A DNA stretch of 64,000 bases from NCBI GenBank assembly GCA_022820545.1, contig JAJEFG010000107.1:29579-93578 (forward strand), given 5' to 3'. A program made the position numbers and the translations under genes. The notes under the pieces are model-generated. The model saw only the letters and a program-made list of their open reading frames with translations, was not told the origin of the DNA and made no database searches. Source of the stretch: Acidobacteriota bacterium (lineage in GTDB: Bacteria; Acidobacteriota; Vicinamibacteria; Marinacidobacterales; Marinacidobacteraceae). Below are positions 6,697 through 46,964 of the stretch, piece by piece (position 1 is the stretch's first letter; every line of letters starts with the position of its first letter).

Positions 6697-6750
6697 CGGT
6701 TTCGACCGCCTCTCGGCGGTCGATGCCGGCCGGAGGCCGGCGCTCCGAGC
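6697..6750 (+). repeat. REP-like GC-rich palindromic element, family A copy 1
   Basis: GGTTTCGACCGCC-TCTC-GGCGGTCGA is a 5' hairpin. It is followed by the core GATGCCGGCCGGAGGCCGGCGCTCCGAGC, which contains the hairpin GCCGGCC-GGA-GGCCGGC. The same core recurs at 33162, 46911 and, inverted, at 42103. Confidence 0.7.
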
Positions 6751-8967: not shown

Positions 8968-10644
8968 ATGACTGTCCGTTCCGCGTCCATCCCCGTTCCG
9001 CTGCGTCTGCTGCCGTTGTTGCTGGCCGGATTCCTCGCGGCCTGCGGGTCCGAACCGCCCCCGCCGGTCCCCGCCGAACCCGGCGCCCACGCGGACCTCG
9101 TCGCGCTCTTCGAGGAGTGGCGCGAGTTCGAGATGCCCGAGTTCCGAGACGGCGTTCCGGACTACAGCGCCGCGGCGATGGCGCGCCAACAGGCCGAGCT
9201 TCCGGCCTGGCGCGCGCGGCTGGACGGGCTGGCGCCCGAGACCTGGCCGGTTTCCGAGCAGATCGACTGGCACCTGCTGCGCGCCGAGATGAACGGGCTC
9301 GACTTCGACCACCGGGTGCGGCGGCCGTGGGCCCGCGATCCGGGTTTCTACGTGCAGGTCTTCACCGCCCAGAGCGACGTGCCGGCCCACGAAGGGCCGG
9401 TGCTCCACGGGTTCATCGACCTCTGGACCTACGACTACCCCCTCTCCGACGCGGACGCGGCCGAGCTGGCGGCGCGGATCGGAACGGTCCCCGCACTGCT
9501 GGCGCAGGCGAAGGAGAACCTCGCGGCTTCCAACGCCCGGGACCTCTGGCTCGGCGGGTTTCGCTACTTCCGGAACCAGGCCGCCGACCTCGCCGCGTTC
9601 GGCGAGCGGATCGCGGGAACGAGCGCCGATCTGGACGCCGCGGTGGAGGCGGCCCACGCCGCCACCGTGGACTTCCGGGAGTTCCTCGAGGCCGAAGCCG
9701 ACTCGAAGACCGGTCCCTCGGGACTCGGGGCCGACAACTACACCTGGGCGATGCAGCACGTGCACCTGCTGCCGTGGTCGTGGGAGCAGATCCTGACCAT
9801 CATGGAGCGGGAACTGGCCCGCTCCCACTCCTCGATGCGCCTCGAGGAGAACCGGAACCGGGCGCTCCCCGAACTCGAACGGATCGCCTCGGCCGAGGAG
9901 TACGACCGGCGCCTCAACGAGTCCGTGGACCGCTACCTGGAGTTTCTCGTCCGCGAGGAGGTCCAGAGCATCGAGGACTTCATGGATCCGGCGCTCCGGG
10001 CGGTGAACGGGACCTTCCAGCCGCTGGAGAACCCGGACGATCTGCGGAACTTCTTCAGCGAGGTGAACTACCGCGACCCGGACGCCTTCCGCCCGCACAT
10101 GCACCACTGGATCGAGCTGGCGGCCATGCGGGACGCGCCCCACCTGAGCCCCATCCGCGCCGTTCCGTCGCTGTTCAACATCTACGCGTTCCGCTCGGAG
10201 GGCCTCGCCACCGGCGTCGAGGAGATGTTCATGCACCTCGGCCTCCTCGAAGGTTCGCCGCGGTCGCGGGAGCTGACCTGGATCATGCTGGCCCAACGCG
10301 CCGCCCGCGCCATCAGCGGACTCCACCTTCACGGCGGCGGCTTCGACATGGAGGAGGCGGTCGCCTACGCGATGAAGTGGACGCCGCGCGGCTGGCTGAC
10401 CGAGGGCGCCCTGGTACGCGGCGAACAGAGTCTCTACCTGCGTCAGCCCGGCTACGGGACCAGCTACATCATGGGGAAGATCCAGATCGAGCAGCTCCTC
10501 GCCGAGGTGGCGGTGCTGGAGGGCGACGACTTCAGCGTGAAGGACTTCTTCGACCGCTTCTACGCCGCCGGGGTGATTCCGGTCACCCTGGTGCGCTGGG
10601 AGATGACCGGCGAGAAGGACCCGGTGCTGGACCTCCGGCCGTAG
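8968..10644 (+). CDS. Hypothetical lipoprotein (~558 aa; DUF885-like assignment uncertain)
   Basis: The clean ORF has a signal and lipobox LLAGFLAACGS. GGAGG lies 6 nt upstream. There is no HEXXH motif, so a peptidase-MA assignment is not supported. Confidence 0.7.
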   Translation: MTVRSASIPVPLRLLPLLLAGFLAACGSEPPPPVPAEPGAHADLVALFEEWREFEMPEFRDGVPDYSAAAMARQQAELPAWRARLDGLAPETWPVSEQIDWHLLRAEMNGLDFDHRVRRPWARDPGFYVQVFTAQSDVPAHEGPVLHGFIDLWTYDYPLSDADAAELAARIGTVPALLAQAKENLAASNARDLWLGGFRYFRNQAADLAAFGERIAGTSADLDAAVEAAHAATVDFREFLEAEADSKTGPSGLGADNYTWAMQHVHLLPWSWEQILTIMERELARSHSSMRLEENRNRALPELERIASAEEYDRRLNESVDRYLEFLVREEVQSIEDFMDPALRAVNGTFQPLENPDDLRNFFSEVNYRDPDAFRPHMHHWIELAAMRDAPHLSPIRAVPSLFNIYAFRSEGLATGVEEMFMHLGLLEGSPRSRELTWIMLAQRAARAISGLHLHGGGFDMEEAVAYAMKWTPRGWLTEGALVRGEQSLYLRQPGYGTSYIMGKIQIEQLLAEVAVLEGDDFSVKDFFDRFYAAGVIPVTLVRWEMTGEKDPVLDLRP

Positions 10645-10678
10645 AAGCCCCGGCGCCGGGCTGGCATACTCCGCCGCC

Positions 10679-11797
10679 GTGATTGCAAGACCCATCGCCG
10701 GACTGCTCGGCGCCACTCTGCTGTTGTCGGCTCCCTCCGGGGCCGCCTCGGCCGAACCGTTCCGCCTCGGAACCTTCGAACACCGGGGCGAGGCGTTCCT
10801 CGGGATCGTTCTCCGCGACGCCTGGGCGGTGGACCTCTCCGGAGCGAACGCCTCGCTCGAGCGGCACAACCGGATGTGGGTCAGCCTCCCCATGCCGGAG
10901 GACATGAAGGAACTCGCCGGGCGCTGGCATCTCGGCATGCGCGACCGGGTCCACGCCATCGTGGACCAGGTGGTCCCGCTGCTCGACCGCTCCGCGGACG
11001 AACGTCCGGTGTGGATCCACGAGCTCGAGGGGCTCCACGTCTTCCCGCCGGTACGCCCGGGGATCATCCTGGCCACCGCCCTCAACTACCCGGCGCACGG
11101 GGTGGAGATGACCACCGGCGCGCCGGCGGCCATGTCGGACGCCTCGGCGCTCGACGACCAGCAGGTCTCGATGGACCACTTCTGGGAGCGGGAGCCGGGC
11201 GACCGCCGCCAGAACCCGTACCTCTTCATGAAGCCCGGGAGCATCGCCATCGGCCACGGCGAGCCGATCCTGATGAAGCCCGAGCGGGAGATGGTGGACT
11301 GGGAGTGCGAACTCGCGGTGGTGATCGGCCGGCCCGCGAGCGACGTCGAGGCGGAGGACGCCGGCGCCCACGTCTTCGGCTACACGATGATGAACGACGT
11401 CGGCGACCGGGAGGGCCGGGGGGACGACCGCTACGGGTCGGACTGGCTGGTGTGGAAGTCCACCGAGACCTTTGCCCCGCTCGGCCCCTTCATCACCCCG
11501 GCGGAGTTCGTGGCCGACCCGCACGACCTGGACATCCGTTTCACCCTGTCGGGCGAGATCATGCAGGACGCCAACACCGGCATCATGGAGCACAAGATCC
11601 CCGAACTCATCCAGTTCGCCTCCCACAACCTGATCCTGCGGCCGGGCGACGTGATCGCCACCGGAACCCCGGACGGCGTGGGCTACGCCCGCATCCCGCC
11701 CATCTTCATGAAACCCGGCGACACCGCCGCCTGCTGGGCCGAGGGGATCGGAACGCTCGTGAACCCGGTGCGCGCGTGGGCGGACGCCATTCGCTGA
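10679..11797 (+). CDS. Fumarylacetoacetate hydrolase (FAH) family protein with N-terminal Sec signal peptide
   Basis: GTG start. MIARPIAGLLGATLLLSAPSGAASA is a signal peptide. FAH motifs are present: VIATGTPDGVG, and the C-terminal 220 aa are typical of HpaG/MhpD-like hydratases. Confidence 0.75.
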   Translation: MIARPIAGLLGATLLLSAPSGAASAEPFRLGTFEHRGEAFLGIVLRDAWAVDLSGANASLERHNRMWVSLPMPEDMKELAGRWHLGMRDRVHAIVDQVVPLLDRSADERPVWIHELEGLHVFPPVRPGIILATALNYPAHGVEMTTGAPAAMSDASALDDQQVSMDHFWEREPGDRRQNPYLFMKPGSIAIGHGEPILMKPEREMVDWECELAVVIGRPASDVEAEDAGAHVFGYTMMNDVGDREGRGDDRYGSDWLVWKSTETFAPLGPFITPAEFVADPHDLDIRFTLSGEIMQDANTGIMEHKIPELIQFASHNLILRPGDVIATGTPDGVGYARIPPIFMKPGDTAACWAEGIGTLVNPVRAWADAIR

Positions 11798-14562: not shown

Positions 14563-15246
14563 TCAACGCCGGGGCCGCCGGCCCACGGCAACCACCATCG
14601 GGCCTTCGGTCCACGCCAGTTCCGCCTCGAAACCGGCGGCGCCCATCGCAGCGGCTTCCATCTCCTGCGGGAAATAGGTGTCCTCTTCCTGCCATTCGGC
14701 GAAGTGCCGGTAGGCGCGCTCCTCCGGAATGCCGCACGACATCAGGTGGGCGGCCCAGGCACGCCACACGGGCTCCCGGGCGCTGGGCTCCGCCGGCATC
14801 GTCGCGTCGGCGTTCACGAAGACGCCGCCCGGACGGAGACAGTCGTGGATCCGGGCGAAGAGCCGCCGCTTTTCGCCCATCGTCGGGACGTGGTGGAGCG
14901 CGAGCGAAGCGGCGACCGCGTCGGCCTCCGGGAGGGGATCGTCGAAGGACGCCTCGCGGAAGCGCGTCCGGCGCCCGTACCCGTCGAGGCGTTCCCGCGC
15001 CACCGCGAGCATGTCGGGGTCCACGTCGATCAACTCGACCGTCGCGCCCGGCGCCGCACGCAGGATGGCTTCGGCAAGGGCGCCGGTGCCGCCGCCGAGG
15101 TCCAGCACGTGTTCCGGCGCCACCCGCGCGATCTCGGCGGCGGCCGCTTCGAGCATCGCCTCGTAGCCGGGGATGAAGCGCCGGATCGCCTCGTCGTAGG
15201 CCTCGACCTCGACGCGCAGGTGACGTCTGACGGAGTGACGGGACAT
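14563..15246 (-). CDS. Class I SAM-dependent methyltransferase
   Basis: This is the C-terminal 227 aa of ORF 14563..15606(-), starting MSRHSVRRHL. The SAM motif is VLDLGGGTGALAEAI, with an acidic loop ELIDVD. Confidence 0.7.
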   Translation of the reverse strand: MSRHSVRRHLRVEVEAYDEAIRRFIPGYEAMLEAAAAEIARVAPEHVLDLGGGTGALAEAILRAAPGATVELIDVDPDMLAVARERLDGYGRRTRFREASFDDPLPEADAVAASLALHHVPTMGEKRRLFARIHDCLRPGGVFVNADATMPAEPSAREPVWRAWAAHLMSCGIPEERAYRHFAEWQEEDTYFPQEMEAAAMGAAGFEAELAWTEGPMVVAVGRRPRR

Positions 15247-15448
15247 GCCGGGCGATTCTCGCAGCAGCGTCCGCGAGGAGGCCGTACCCGCGGCGATCAG
15301 CGGCAATCGGTTTCGCGGCCCTCCCGGGCGGCGGCGCCGGTCTGAAAGCCCCCACCGGGAGACACCGTCATGTTCGGTGCACCAGCACGCCCCGCCGCTC
15401 ATGAAGGTGCGCGGCGGGACGCTGAGCCTTCGGTGGCAGGGACGGTTT

Positions 15449-15474
15449 GGAACGCCGGCTTCAGCCGGCACAGC
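15449..15474 (+). repeat. REP-like element family B copy (GGAACGCCGGCTTCAGCCGGCACAGC), left arm of inverted pair
   Basis: It contains the GCCGGC-TTCA-GCCGGC hairpin and is followed by the palindrome GCCCGCC-GCA-GGCGGGC (15472-15488). Confidence 0.7.
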
Positions 15475-15578
15475 CCGCCGCAGGCGGGCGGCGAGACGGA
15501 CCTCATTCGCCGGGATGGCTCGACCGTGTGCGCCAATGCACCCGGGTAGCGACGGAACCGCCCGCGGCCCTGCGGGCC

Positions 15579-15604
15579 GCTGTGCCGGCTGAAGCCGGCG
15601 TTCC
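15579..15604 (-). repeat. REP-like element family B copy, right arm (exact reverse complement of 15449-15474)
   Basis: GCTGTGCCGGCTGAAGCCGGCGTTCC is a perfect 26-bp inverted copy. It is preceded by the hairpin GCCCGC-GGCCCT-GCGGGC. Confidence 0.7.
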
Positions 15605-15648
15605 AAGCCAGCGGCGTCCTCACGGCTGTTGGCCCGCCGGCGCTTCCC

Positions 15649-21530
<5,882 letters not shown>

Positions 21531-21691
21531 AGCTGGTTCATTGCTGTGGTCGCCCCGACACCGTCTAGCATCGAAAGATGGTGGCTTGGCAGTCTCGCTG
21601 TTGGAACGGGCTCACCACTCTCGTTGCCCGCATAGTGAACTGCCGGCCATTCGTGTGTGTCACCGCGTACTTTGCCAAAGGAGCACAATCC

Positions 21692-22177
21692 TTGACCGAT
21701 TCGACCGAAAGACATTCTGGACGTTCCAGCTATCGGGAACTACTGATTGAGAAGCGATTCCTCAGCGATCTGCTCGCCGAGTTGTGGCCCGAAGAGGTTG
21801 AAGTGCTCCGGCCCGACGTGGACATTGCGGGATACGACCTCGTGCTAGAGGCCCGCGGGTCTATGCGTCATCTCCAACTCAAGTCGGCGCTCCGATCCGT
21901 ACGCAAAAACAATCGCAGCGTGAGGGGAAGACTCGCCCAAAAGCCTGCGGGCTGTGTCCTCTGTATCGTGATAGACGACAAGCTGGAGCCGAAGAGATAC
22001 CGATGGTTTGGCAACGGTCCGGGAGAGAGGCTGAACTTGCGCGGGTTCGACAAGGCGTGCGATCCCAAGACCAAAAAGGAGAGGCTGGACACCTACACCG
22101 TGCCTCCTGAGGAATTTGTCGAACTGGAAGGGATCAAGGACGTGATCGAGAAACTGTTTGGACCGAAAACGGCGTAG
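21692..22177 (+). CDS. Small PD-(D/E)xK-type (Hjc/YraN-like) putative nuclease, low-GC horizontally acquired gene
   Basis: This is an in-frame TTG start within ORF 21578..22177, with AAGGAG 8 nt upstream. A putative catalytic core E..(16 aa)..DIAGYD..(9 aa)..LQLK is present. The gene is ~55% GC and K-rich in a ~70% GC background. Confidence 0.45.
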   Translation: MTDSTERHSGRSSYRELLIEKRFLSDLLAELWPEEVEVLRPDVDIAGYDLVLEARGSMRHLQLKSALRSVRKNNRSVRGRLAQKPAGCVLCIVIDDKLEPKRYRWFGNGPGERLNLRGFDKACDPKTKKERLDTYTVPPEEFVELEGIKDVIEKLFGPKTA

Positions 22178-22287
22178 CCTTGCCTGCACCCGAGGGGCGA
22201 CAAAGGGCCTTTCAGAACCACGAAGAGCTACTTGGCGTTCAACGCTCGCCGGTCGGATCCATCGGGCGCCTGGTTGGCAGCTCGCAG

Positions 22288-26215: not shown

Positions 26216-26260
26216 GGAACGCCGGCTTCAGCGGGCACGCGCGGCGCTCGGCGCCGCGCG
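26216..26260 (+). repeat. REP-like element family B copy (GGAACGCCGGCTTCAGCGGGCACGC) plus adjacent perfect hairpin CGCGCGGCGC-TCG-GCGCCGCGCG
   Basis: Intergenic, lying between the S9 peptidase and the downstream membrane protein. Confidence 0.65.
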
Positions 26261-32995: not shown

Positions 32996-33161
32996 CACGC
33001 CCGTCCGTCCGGCGCGTGCACCCAGCGATAGCCCGACCCTCCGGGACGTCGCCGAGATCAGGTCAGGTGGATCGCGAGTGGCACGCCGGTGAGCGCATCA
33101 CGTCGCGGTAAGGCACCCGTCCTGCGGGTCGGAAGGGGGGAGCGTCGTCTCGCGTTTCGCC

Positions 33162-33214
33162 TCGCTGCGCTCGGCGATGCCGGCCGGATTGCCGGCGCTC
33201 CGAGCCATAGCGCC
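33162..33214 (+). repeat. REP-like element family A copy 2
   Basis: GCGTTTCGCCTCGCTGCGCTCGGCGATGCCGGCCGGATTGCCGGCGCTCCGAGC. It lies in the convergent intergenic spacer. Confidence 0.7.
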
Positions 33215-39076: not shown

Positions 39077-39090
39077 GGTCGCATGGCGCC

Positions 39091-39142
39091 GCCGGCTTGG
39101 AACGCCGGTCTCCAGACCGGCACCGCAGCGCTCCGCGCTGCG
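39091..39142 (+). repeat. Cluster of GC hairpins related to REP family B (GCCGGCTTGGAACGCCGG; GCCGGTCT-CC-AGACCGGC; CAGCGC-TCC-GCGCTG)
   Basis: The hairpins lie in the intergenic region upstream of the molybdo-oxidoreductase operon. Confidence 0.55.
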
Positions 39143-39228
39143 CACCGCACGGCCTTGACGTGCAGGATGACGCGCGGGAGGCATAGGATGTTGACGGACA
39201 ATCCTCCGCGCGGAGGGGAGAGACATCG

Positions 39229-42102: not shown

Positions 42103-42133
42103 TCGGAGCGCCGGCCTCCGGCCGGCATCGCGG
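42103..42133 (-). repeat. REP-like element family A copy (reverse orientation)
   Basis: The reverse complement reads GCGATGCCGGCCGGAGGCCGGCGCTCCGAAC. It lies in a convergent intergenic spacer. Confidence 0.7.
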
Positions 42134-42207
42134 CCCCCAGGGCCGCGAGACCGCGTAACGCGAACCGGCAACAGGCGCGGCGCGTAGCCCGGAGTGCCCG
42201 ACCCCTC

Positions 42208-46910: not shown

Positions 46911-46964
46911 GAGTTTCGCCTCGCTGCGCTCGGCGATGCCGGCCGGAGGCCGGCGCTCCGCTAG
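46911..46964 (+). repeat. REP-like element family A copy 3
   Basis: GAGTTTCGCCTCGCTGCGCTCGGCGATGCCGGCCGGAGGCCGGCGCTCCGCTAG. It is nearly identical to the copy at 33162. Confidence 0.7.

Follow-up and report, generated by a model that had tools for sequence, protein, structure and literature searches.

A recurrent 156-bp inverted repeat in uncultured Vicinamibacteria is probably a REP doublet of a REP-RAYT system

Introduction

A stretch of 64,000 nucleotides from an Acidobacteriota bacterium of the class Vicinamibacteria (assembly GCA_022820545.1, contig JAJEFG010000107.1, positions 29,579 to 93,578; hereafter the window) holds, at positions 15449-15604, an intergenic unit of 156 bp whose two ends are inverted copies of each other. 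The question raised by this locus is what kind of element the unit is. A preliminary description, made from the window alone, called it MITE-like and offered three possibilities: a miniature inverted-repeat transposable element (MITE), a pair of repetitive extragenic palindromes (REPs) resembling a bacterial interspersed mosaic element (BIME), or a structured small RNA. The answer proposed here, with considerable confidence, is that the unit is a REP doublet, of the type known as a REPIN (REP doublet forming hairpin) or BIME, and that it belongs to a system of REPs and a REP-associated tyrosine transposase (RAYT), a domesticated transposase.

To our knowledge, work on REPIN-RAYT systems has been confined almost entirely to Enterobacteria and Pseudomonas. 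The present family adds a well-populated system in uncultured Acidobacteriota, distinctive in its unusual foot, its two-hairpin modules, the long arrays around the RAYT gene, and a recognition hairpin common to several phyla. The kind of system is already known, but the family is previously uncatalogued, belonging neither to the GTAG or CGTC super-families nor to any REP tabulated in PMC6006769; the motif gave no text match in the papers searched and is absent from the REP tables of that paper.

Anatomy of the 156-bp unit

The inverted 26-mer on which the preliminary description was built is exactly as claimed: GGAACGCCGGCTTCAGCCGGCACAGC occupies 15449-15474 on the plus strand, and its exact reverse complement occupies 15579-15604. 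These are the sole matches in the window at three or fewer mismatches, and none was found in 100 dinucleotide-preserving shuffles. The perfect arms are in fact 28 nt long (TTGG...ACAGC, 15447-15474 and 15579-15606), and complementarity continues at 85% across 48 nt (15444-15491 against 15562-15609), in agreement with the earlier view of the unit as an extended imperfect palindrome. The left of the two inner hairpins proposed there (GCCCGCC GCA GGCGGGC, 15473-15489) stands as given, while the right one is preferably read as GCGGCCC TGC GGGCCGC (15564-15580), because this register is conserved in the family; the GCCCGC/GCGGGC pairing originally proposed is an alternative register. When both strands were folded, as had been suggested, each was predicted to form a single long hairpin containing small internal hairpins (-123 and -127 kcal/mol; z = -5.2 and -6.4 against shuffles). 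No terminator-like site was found in 15000-15900, and no T run follows either hairpin.

Folding of four arms in the window (the two of the doublet and those at 26216 and 39099) gave a common module: a leader ending in ..CGGCTT, an unpaired GGAAC foot, hairpin 1 (GCCGGC TTCA GCCGGC), the dinucleotide AC, hairpin 2, whose sequence varies from copy to copy, and a tail of about 25 nt. The part from foot to AC is here called the head; with its two preceding nucleotides it is written TTGGAAC-GCCGGCTTCAGCCGGC-AC.

Recurrence and arrangement of the modules

The 21-mer GGAACGCCGGCTTCAGCCGGC was scanned in one genome per species and then in metagenomes, the second step being taken because a REPtron with exact heads was expected in a few per cent of head-containing stretches. 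Exact matches were found in at least 115 genome stretches and at least 120 metagenome stretches. Among the genome matches listed, most belong to Acidobacteriota, as metagenome-assembled genomes (MAGs) that include two complete chromosomes of Vicinamibacteria; the other carriers are Verrucomicrobiota, Planctomycetota, a Kapaibacterium MAG, and further groups. Several carrier MAGs have isolate names of a style that we take to indicate sponge metagenomes. The longer 26-mer is likewise not unique to this locus, with 53 exact occurrences in 47 of the loci examined. Plasmid and viral collections gave no matches to the repeat, as expected for a chromosomal, vertically kept system.

Only 14 of 268 heads lie inside called genes, so the extragenic bias is clear. 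Across these heads the foot is GGA(A/G/C)C (one relative has GGTCC beside its RAYT gene), and the stem of hairpin 1 varies by compensatory changes (GCCGGCC/GGCCGGC, GCCGGTCT/AGACCGGC, GCCGAC/GTCGGC, and GCCGCG/CGCGGC); the head is therefore likely to be recognised as a structure and not as duplex sequence. Of 265 unique copies, 82% have a hairpin 2, with 65 distinct stems, compared with 27% of shuffled sequences (45-mers scored for a hairpin stem of at least 6 bp).

Heads occur singly (101), in head-to-tail arrays with periods of about 82 and about 120 bp (96), or in inward-facing doublets (70), while outward-facing pairs are essentially absent. The doublets number 36 and their modal unit is exactly 156 bp, so paired copies do recur at the same spacing and the 156-bp unit is the commonest. 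The 156-bp doublets are of two main types, class I (A/B, the type in the window) and class II (C/D). The class I doublet with its core has nine further copies at unrelated loci in at least five genomes (MAGs), and the ten copies align over their full length with a mean identity of 87% for the whole unit and 82% for its 104-bp core. In this alignment conservation of the left leader, which is present in most family copies, begins about 15-17 nt ahead of the foot. Similarity among class I copies extends about 40 nt past the right head, and the right leader is conserved in them; the copy in the window thus spans approximately 15432-15645, and the repeat reaches to 3 nt before the neighbouring beta-galactosidase stop codon. 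Target-site duplications had been suggested as a further thing to look for, and none was seen: no direct repeats are visible at the edges of the ten aligned copies, which are fuzzy.

Some inverted head pairs are much longer and were considered as candidate autonomous elements. Those in loci L010 (2.8 kb), L093, and L095 enclose ordinary genes or ParDE toxin-antitoxin pairs and no transposases; the ParD/ParE-type cassettes lie at 2394-3181 of L095 and 3303-5586 of L093, and another lies between REP arrays beside a RAYT gene at 1394-2015 of L243. A putative P4-type integrase family, read from N-terminal sequence, is present in four head-containing loci, and in L038 (5679-6887) it is directly downstream of two heads. 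Head orientation was also compared with replichore and GC skew on the two complete chromosomes, where the few points available showed no pattern.

RAYT genes and their flanking repeats

RAYT-like genes were found by tblastn in five metagenome stretches (L117, L141, L142, L219, and L227). The open reading frame (ORF) at 80-874 of L141, which encodes the same protein as L117, scores 93.3 bits against the NCBIfam equivalog model NF047646 for REP-associated tyrosine transposases (cut-off 80), passes Pfam Y1_Tnp, and lies between inward-facing exact heads. A protein search with this RAYT gave 4546 homologues, among them P0031, which is 70% identical to it, scores 96.8 bits for NF047646, and is encoded on the 3,796,715-bp chromosome OY821641.1; its sole PDB match is E. 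coli TnpA-REP (4ER8). With the IS200 model the RAYTs score 16-19 bits and fail the cut-off of 55. The His-x-His residues H146 and H148 and the tyrosine Tyr206 of P0031 are invariant in eight aligned sequences, and these residues align with 4ER8. Identity to the E. coli RAYT sequence is about 25%.

The physical association of RAYT genes with the repeat is observed directly. At the P0031 locus (L236), six REP units lie upstream on the strand of the gene and ten downstream on the other strand, facing inward. Inward-facing arrays, with genome-specific stem variants, likewise surround P0008, P0038, P0061, and P0085. Apart from OY821641.1 (L236/L237), six other places with five further proteins have a REP-flanked RAYT gene (L141/L117, L240, L242, L243, and L245). 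The P0031 protein together with the GGAAC hairpin is thus a candidate enzyme-substrate pair. With these modules beside RAYT genes in relatives, arms built of a REP-type foot and hairpin, and a recurring 156-bp spacing, the paired-REP (BIME-like) possibility is the one of the three that the evidence favours.

L236 (4429-4900 and 5770-6490) and L237 are two contigs of one sample with an identical P0031, but the units number 6 versus 9 upstream and 10 versus 12 downstream; array length is therefore polymorphic within the population. Among the best 120 of the 4546 homologues, the OY821641.1 chromosome has one RAYT protein cluster. The RAYT gene lies between gmk and coaBC in L243 and L245 and between RidA-like and M16 peptidase genes in OY821641.1 (L236), so it is not always at one conserved locus. 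The RAYT homologue of L227 (1066-1903), which has exact 21-mers on both sides, is divided between two reading frames and is either a pseudogene or an assembly frameshift. A CRISPR array was considered for the repeats beside RAYT and ruled out, as the inter-repeat segments are themselves repeated, with periods of 80-150 bp. Clustering of 668 predicted locus proteins gave only housekeeping paralogues, an integrase family, and ATPases.

Variation between close relatives

Over syntenic genes the window shares about 92% identity with both OY821641.1 and VXNL01, and its genome is therefore a close relative of each. Presence and absence of modules could be observed directly at several sites. In OY821641.1 a class I doublet occupies a gene gap in which the window (10644-10679) has a 35-bp spacer, and the site between the beta-galactosidase and methyltransferase genes has a different single unit in place of the 156-bp doublet. 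The orthologous site in VXNL01 (L103) is without the whole stretch that corresponds to 39077-39207 of the window. The unit at 42105-42146 and its ortholog in L103 (VXNL01000094.1; about 94% identical) share hairpin 2 and tail but have different heads, GGAGCGCCGGCCTCCGGCCGGCATC versus GGAACGCCGGCTTCAGCCGGCACC, which suggests conversion between repeat copies. As these differences separate genomes that are about 92% identical, the elements are gained and lost, and apparently converted, on that short time scale.

Interpretation and proposed mechanism

The doublet consists of two REP modules in inverted orientation, with heads outward and tails joined. In the proposed mechanism, the family would be the cognate repeat of the RAYT, a single-strand DNA nuclease/ligase of the HUH-Y1 type that would be encoded once elsewhere on the chromosome, between inward-facing arrays of the same modules. 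When DNA is single-stranded, for example at a replication fork, the RAYT could bind the hairpin, take the foot as a guide, cut, and rejoin. Single modules and doublets would in this way be copied, lost, and converted at intergenic sites without target-site duplication. Binding, cleavage, and mobilisation of the modules by the RAYT are proposed by analogy with the systems of E. coli and Pseudomonas (PMC6006769). In geometry the doublet matches a RAYT locus from which the gene has been taken out, and such an origin of REPINs has been proposed (PMC3116915, PMC3337134).

Several points weigh against this interpretation. The canonical GT[AG]G foot is absent, the feet being GGAAC, GGAGC, GGACC, and, in one relative, GGTCC. 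In the window and the first 115 loci (0.9 Mb), neither tblastn (queries: the RAYT of E. coli and the TnpA sequences of IS200 and IS608) nor a His-x-His...Tyr motif scan detected a RAYT or other transposase, and the REP-RAYT link therefore rests on relatives. The heads that flank the RAYT gene of OY821641.1 have the stem interior GCCGGTGT..ACACCGGC, unlike the doublet in the window, and the proposal assumes that a single enzyme acts on every head variant. Finally, the relatives compared provided no clean pair of empty and filled doublet sites, their intergenic flanks being too diverged, so the exact mobile unit and the lack of target duplication are tentative.

Alternative explanations

Some of the same evidence would be expected of a classical MITE, that is, an internally deleted insertion sequence (IS) with 28-bp terminal inverted repeats, moved by a DDE transposase with duplication of its target site. 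The inverted ends are perfect over 28 bp, the size of about 156 bp is suitable, the same unit occurs at many loci, and presence or absence differs between relatives. This origin is nevertheless very unlikely, since the aligned copies have no visible flanking direct repeats, and in about 1.7 Mb around more than 300 heads there is only the RAYT and neither another transposase nor a longer element with the same ends. Single heads and head-to-tail arrays predominate, which a mechanism acting on terminal inverted repeats cannot yield; the compensatory variation of the stem points to recognition as a structure, and the gene that the heads flank encodes an HUH-Y1 RAYT. The label MITE-like can be kept only loosely, for any small mobile unit that is not autonomous, and not in the strict sense, as no target-site duplication, parent IS, or DDE transposase was found. 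That the palindrome arose by chance in intergenic DNA of high GC content, or by a local duplication-inversion without wider meaning, has next to no probability: such DNA is rich in short palindromes, as the shuffled 45-mers show, but with no copies expected the 26-mer has its 53 exact occurrences, and conservation extends over the full 156 bp at unrelated loci of several genomes.

A functional RNA, whether a stabiliser in the 3' untranslated region, a terminator lacking a U tract, a processing site, or a small RNA, could also be the primary identity of the element, with its repetitiveness secondary. Single heads follow the orientation of the upstream gene in co-directional gaps (32 versus 10, p = 0.0009), are found in convergent more than divergent gaps (21 versus 8, against a background of 59 versus 84; p = 0.004), and start a median of 35 nt past the stop codon, often 1-12 nt; both strands are predicted to fold strongly. 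For REPs in general, Di Nocera et al. (PMC3733652) report a 3' bias of this kind. Against an RNA as the origin, Rfam 15 has no match in the window at gathering score, and a permissive scan gave sub-threshold matches only; the highest of these, to the MIR8622 precursor model, reached 32 bits (E = 0.0004; gathering score 197) and is a generic long-hairpin match. Mismatches in hairpin 2 are G-T/T-G in 10 cases and C-A/A-C in 11, without the G-U excess of a strand-specific wobble. Copies are present in both orientations, some of them antisense to genes or within divergent promoter gaps; a U tract and terminator-like sites are lacking, and the tandem arrays of 6-12 units that flank the RAYT gene are unexplained by an RNA function. 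The structured small RNA of the preliminary description is not borne out by these results, and a primary RNA function is improbable, if somewhat less so than a MITE; an RNA role is compatible with the REP doublet as a secondary, exapted function but not as the origin of the element. An intrinsic terminator was separately ruled out, no U tract following the GC hairpins.

The REP doublet may have acquired such a role at this locus. REPs of E. coli form the 3' ends of transcripts, and because the right REP head is 43 nt past the beta-galactosidase stop codon, on the same strand and with the unit in the path of the minus-strand transcript, its hairpins could by analogy form the 3' end of that transcript. 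For single heads in general, the 3' bias may come from a preference in insertion, from purifying selection that removes copies disrupting promoters, or from a co-opted role at 3' ends.

Occurrence of the head in other phyla

Repeat families of Acidobacteriota, Verrucomicrobiota, Planctomycetota, and others have one and the same head hairpin, GGAACGCCGGCTTCAGCCGGC. In the lower-GC metagenome contigs L219 and L227, exact 21-mers are beside RAYTs that are about 41-46% identical to the acidobacterial ones, while RAYTs of other Acidobacteriota are 54-59% identical and have variant heads; conservation of the head does not, therefore, simply track divergence of the RAYT. A Haloferula genome has a 57%-identical RAYT flanked by a different long palindrome. 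It is conceivable, though rather doubtful, that the REP-RAYT pair has crossed from phylum to phylum or has preserved a single recognition hairpin since very ancient times, and that hosts have in addition co-opted single modules as 3'-end hairpins. If so, the transfer or deep conservation would contradict the view of REPIN-RAYT systems as strictly lineage-bound, and the co-option would account for the orientation of single modules with the upstream gene.

Verrucomicrobiota MAGs (L006, L016, L056, L069, L090, and L100) have a dispersed element of about 110-130 bp, which begins with the 21-mer followed by AGAGGCTCCC and ends with GCGGCGTTCC. The element is common to these loci, but the flanks and synteny are not.

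Flanking genes and other REP units in the window

The location given in the preliminary description is correct: the unit is between the stop codon of a glycoside hydrolase family 2 (GH2) beta-galactosidase gene (15649, minus strand) and the start of a minus-strand methyltransferase gene (15246 or 15306). Table 1 gives these genes, the parts of the doublet, and the single units. An ORF of 347 amino acids that carries the methyltransferase through the element was rejected as an over-call, as the domain begins at about residue 154 and the gene likely starts at 15246 or 15306. A gene caller based on the contrast in GC content at third codon positions alone was also rejected, since it gave spurious long ORFs, and a codon-model caller was used instead.

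A wider pattern search found at least eight heads in the 64 kb of the window, at 6746(-), 15449(+), 15604(-), 26216(+), 33201(-), 39099(+), 42105(+), and 46959(-). The two related single copies named in the preliminary description, at 26216 and 39099, are indeed heads; those at 6746, 33201, 42105, and 46959 have variant sequences and were absent from it. The unit at 26216 begins 76 nt past a plus-strand stop codon. In many single units of the family the foot is 1-12 nt past the upstream stop codon, sometimes directly after TAG (L098 968, L042 4557, and 46959 of the window).

Table 1. Parts of the 156-bp doublet, its flanking genes, and single REP units, in positions of the window.
Feature	Position	Strand	Details
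Single REP unit	6704-6746	-	Head GGAGCGCCGGCCTCCGGCCGGC, ATC, hairpin GACCGCC GAGA GGCGGTC
Class I S-adenosylmethionine-dependent methyltransferase	14563-15306	-	Start at ATG 15246 or at 15306
Left leader	15432-15448	+	Weakly conserved ..TGGC..GGACGGTTT; family consensus ..TGGCGCnnnCGGCTT
Left REP head	15449-15471	+	Foot GGAAC 15449-15453; hairpin 1 GCCGGC TTCA GCCGGC 15454-15469; AC
Left hairpin 2, type A	15473-15489	+	GCCCGCC GCA GGCGGGC
Central spacer	15490-15563		Tails of two REP units, tail to tail; conserved among class I doublets
Right hairpin 2, type B	15564-15580	-	Minus-strand reading GCGGCCC GCA GGGCCGC
Right REP head	15582-15604	-	Foot GGAAC 15604-15600; hairpin 1 15599-15584; AC
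Right leader	15605-15645	-	Plus strand AAGCCAGCGGCGTCCTCACGGCTGTTGGCC..; conserved in class I doublets
GH2 beta-galactosidase with C-terminal F5/8 type C domain	15649-20724	-	ORF of 1691 amino acids
Single REP unit	26216-26260	+	One stem mismatch in head (GCCGGC TTCA GCGGGC); second hairpin with 10-bp stem
Single REP unit	33150-33201	-	Variant head GGAGCGCCGGCAATCCGGCCGGC; 40 nt past minus-strand stop codon
Single REP unit	39077-39207	+	Head GGAACGCCGGTCTCCAGACCGGC 39099-39121; hairpin 2 39124-39142
Single REP unit	42105-42146	+	In convergent gap
Single REP unit	46912-46959	-	Head GGAGCGCCGGCCTCCGGCCGGC; begins 2 nt past stop codon

Long ORFs read through REP arrays and single units in several places (L117 10038-11843, L141, and 14563-15606 of the window), giving fake repeat proteins (GLERRLQPAPAAARPRN..., WNAGFSRH...) and over-extended gene calls. 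Annotators should be warned that these repeats are translated as spurious repeat proteins and that ORF calls are inflated by them, as for the 347-residue methyltransferase ORF. The window is otherwise about 70% GC, and an AT-richer stretch at 21560-22200, where 758 bp separate two gene calls, is possibly a small gene of foreign origin overlooked by the high-GC codon model.

Comparison with known systems

One close parallel is the REPIN-RAYT system of Pseudomonas fluorescens SBW25 and relatives (Bertels and Rainey 2011, PMC3116915; PMC3337134), which also has an inverted REP pair with a conserved spacer that forms one long hairpin, hundreds of extragenic copies, single copies resembling remnants of doublets, no plasmid copies, and a chromosomal RAYT gene flanked by the same repeats. 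The present family differs in its foot, GGA(A/G/C)C and not GTAG, in having two hairpins per module, in its longer doublet (156 bp with a 104-bp core), and in the head-to-tail arrays of 6-12 units that flank the RAYT gene; its hosts are uncultured Acidobacteriota and not Gammaproteobacteria, and an identical head is found in other phyla. The REPs, BIMEs, and REPtron of E. coli (TnpA-REP, 4ER8; PMC6006769) are similar in their mosaic of inverted REP types (Y/Z there, A/B and C/D here), their location mostly after the 3' ends of genes, and a RAYT with His-x-His and Tyr. The acidobacterial RAYT, however, has an extra N-terminal region of about 110 amino acids with a conserved SRSYLPH motif, the foot and stem sequences differ, and the spacers are much longer than in BIMEs.

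The GTAG and CGTC super-families (Di Nocera, De Gregorio and Rocco 2013, PMC3733652) share the plan of a tag followed by a short stem-loop, whose loop is 4 nt, and then by a short tail, as well as head-to-head dimers with conserved structured spacers and enrichment between unidirectional and convergent ORFs. The tag of the present family is neither of theirs, and its stem is 6-8 bp of GC pairs only and is accompanied by a RAYT, while CGTC repeats have stems of 8-9 bp beginning with A-T pairs and no known transposase (PMC3733652). Among Acidobacteriota, Solibacter usitatus has about 600 hairpins with a 'CnGA-foot' together with a class 3 TnpA-Y1 (Quentin et al. 2018, PMC6006769), which is likewise an acidobacterial HUH-Y1 protein flanked by atypical high-copy hairpins; that protein has the motif YV..EQ, while those described here have Y(I/V)xNNP, as in class 2 RAYTs, and the foot is different. 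The IS200/IS605 elements and their palindrome-associated derivatives have in common with the present system the enzyme superfamily, subterminal hairpins with a 5' guide, the use of single-stranded DNA, and the lack of target-site duplication. The transposase here, however, is under the IS200 cut-off and over that for RAYTs, and the OY821641.1 chromosome has the single RAYT protein cluster noted above among the best 120 of 4546 homologues, not many IS copies.

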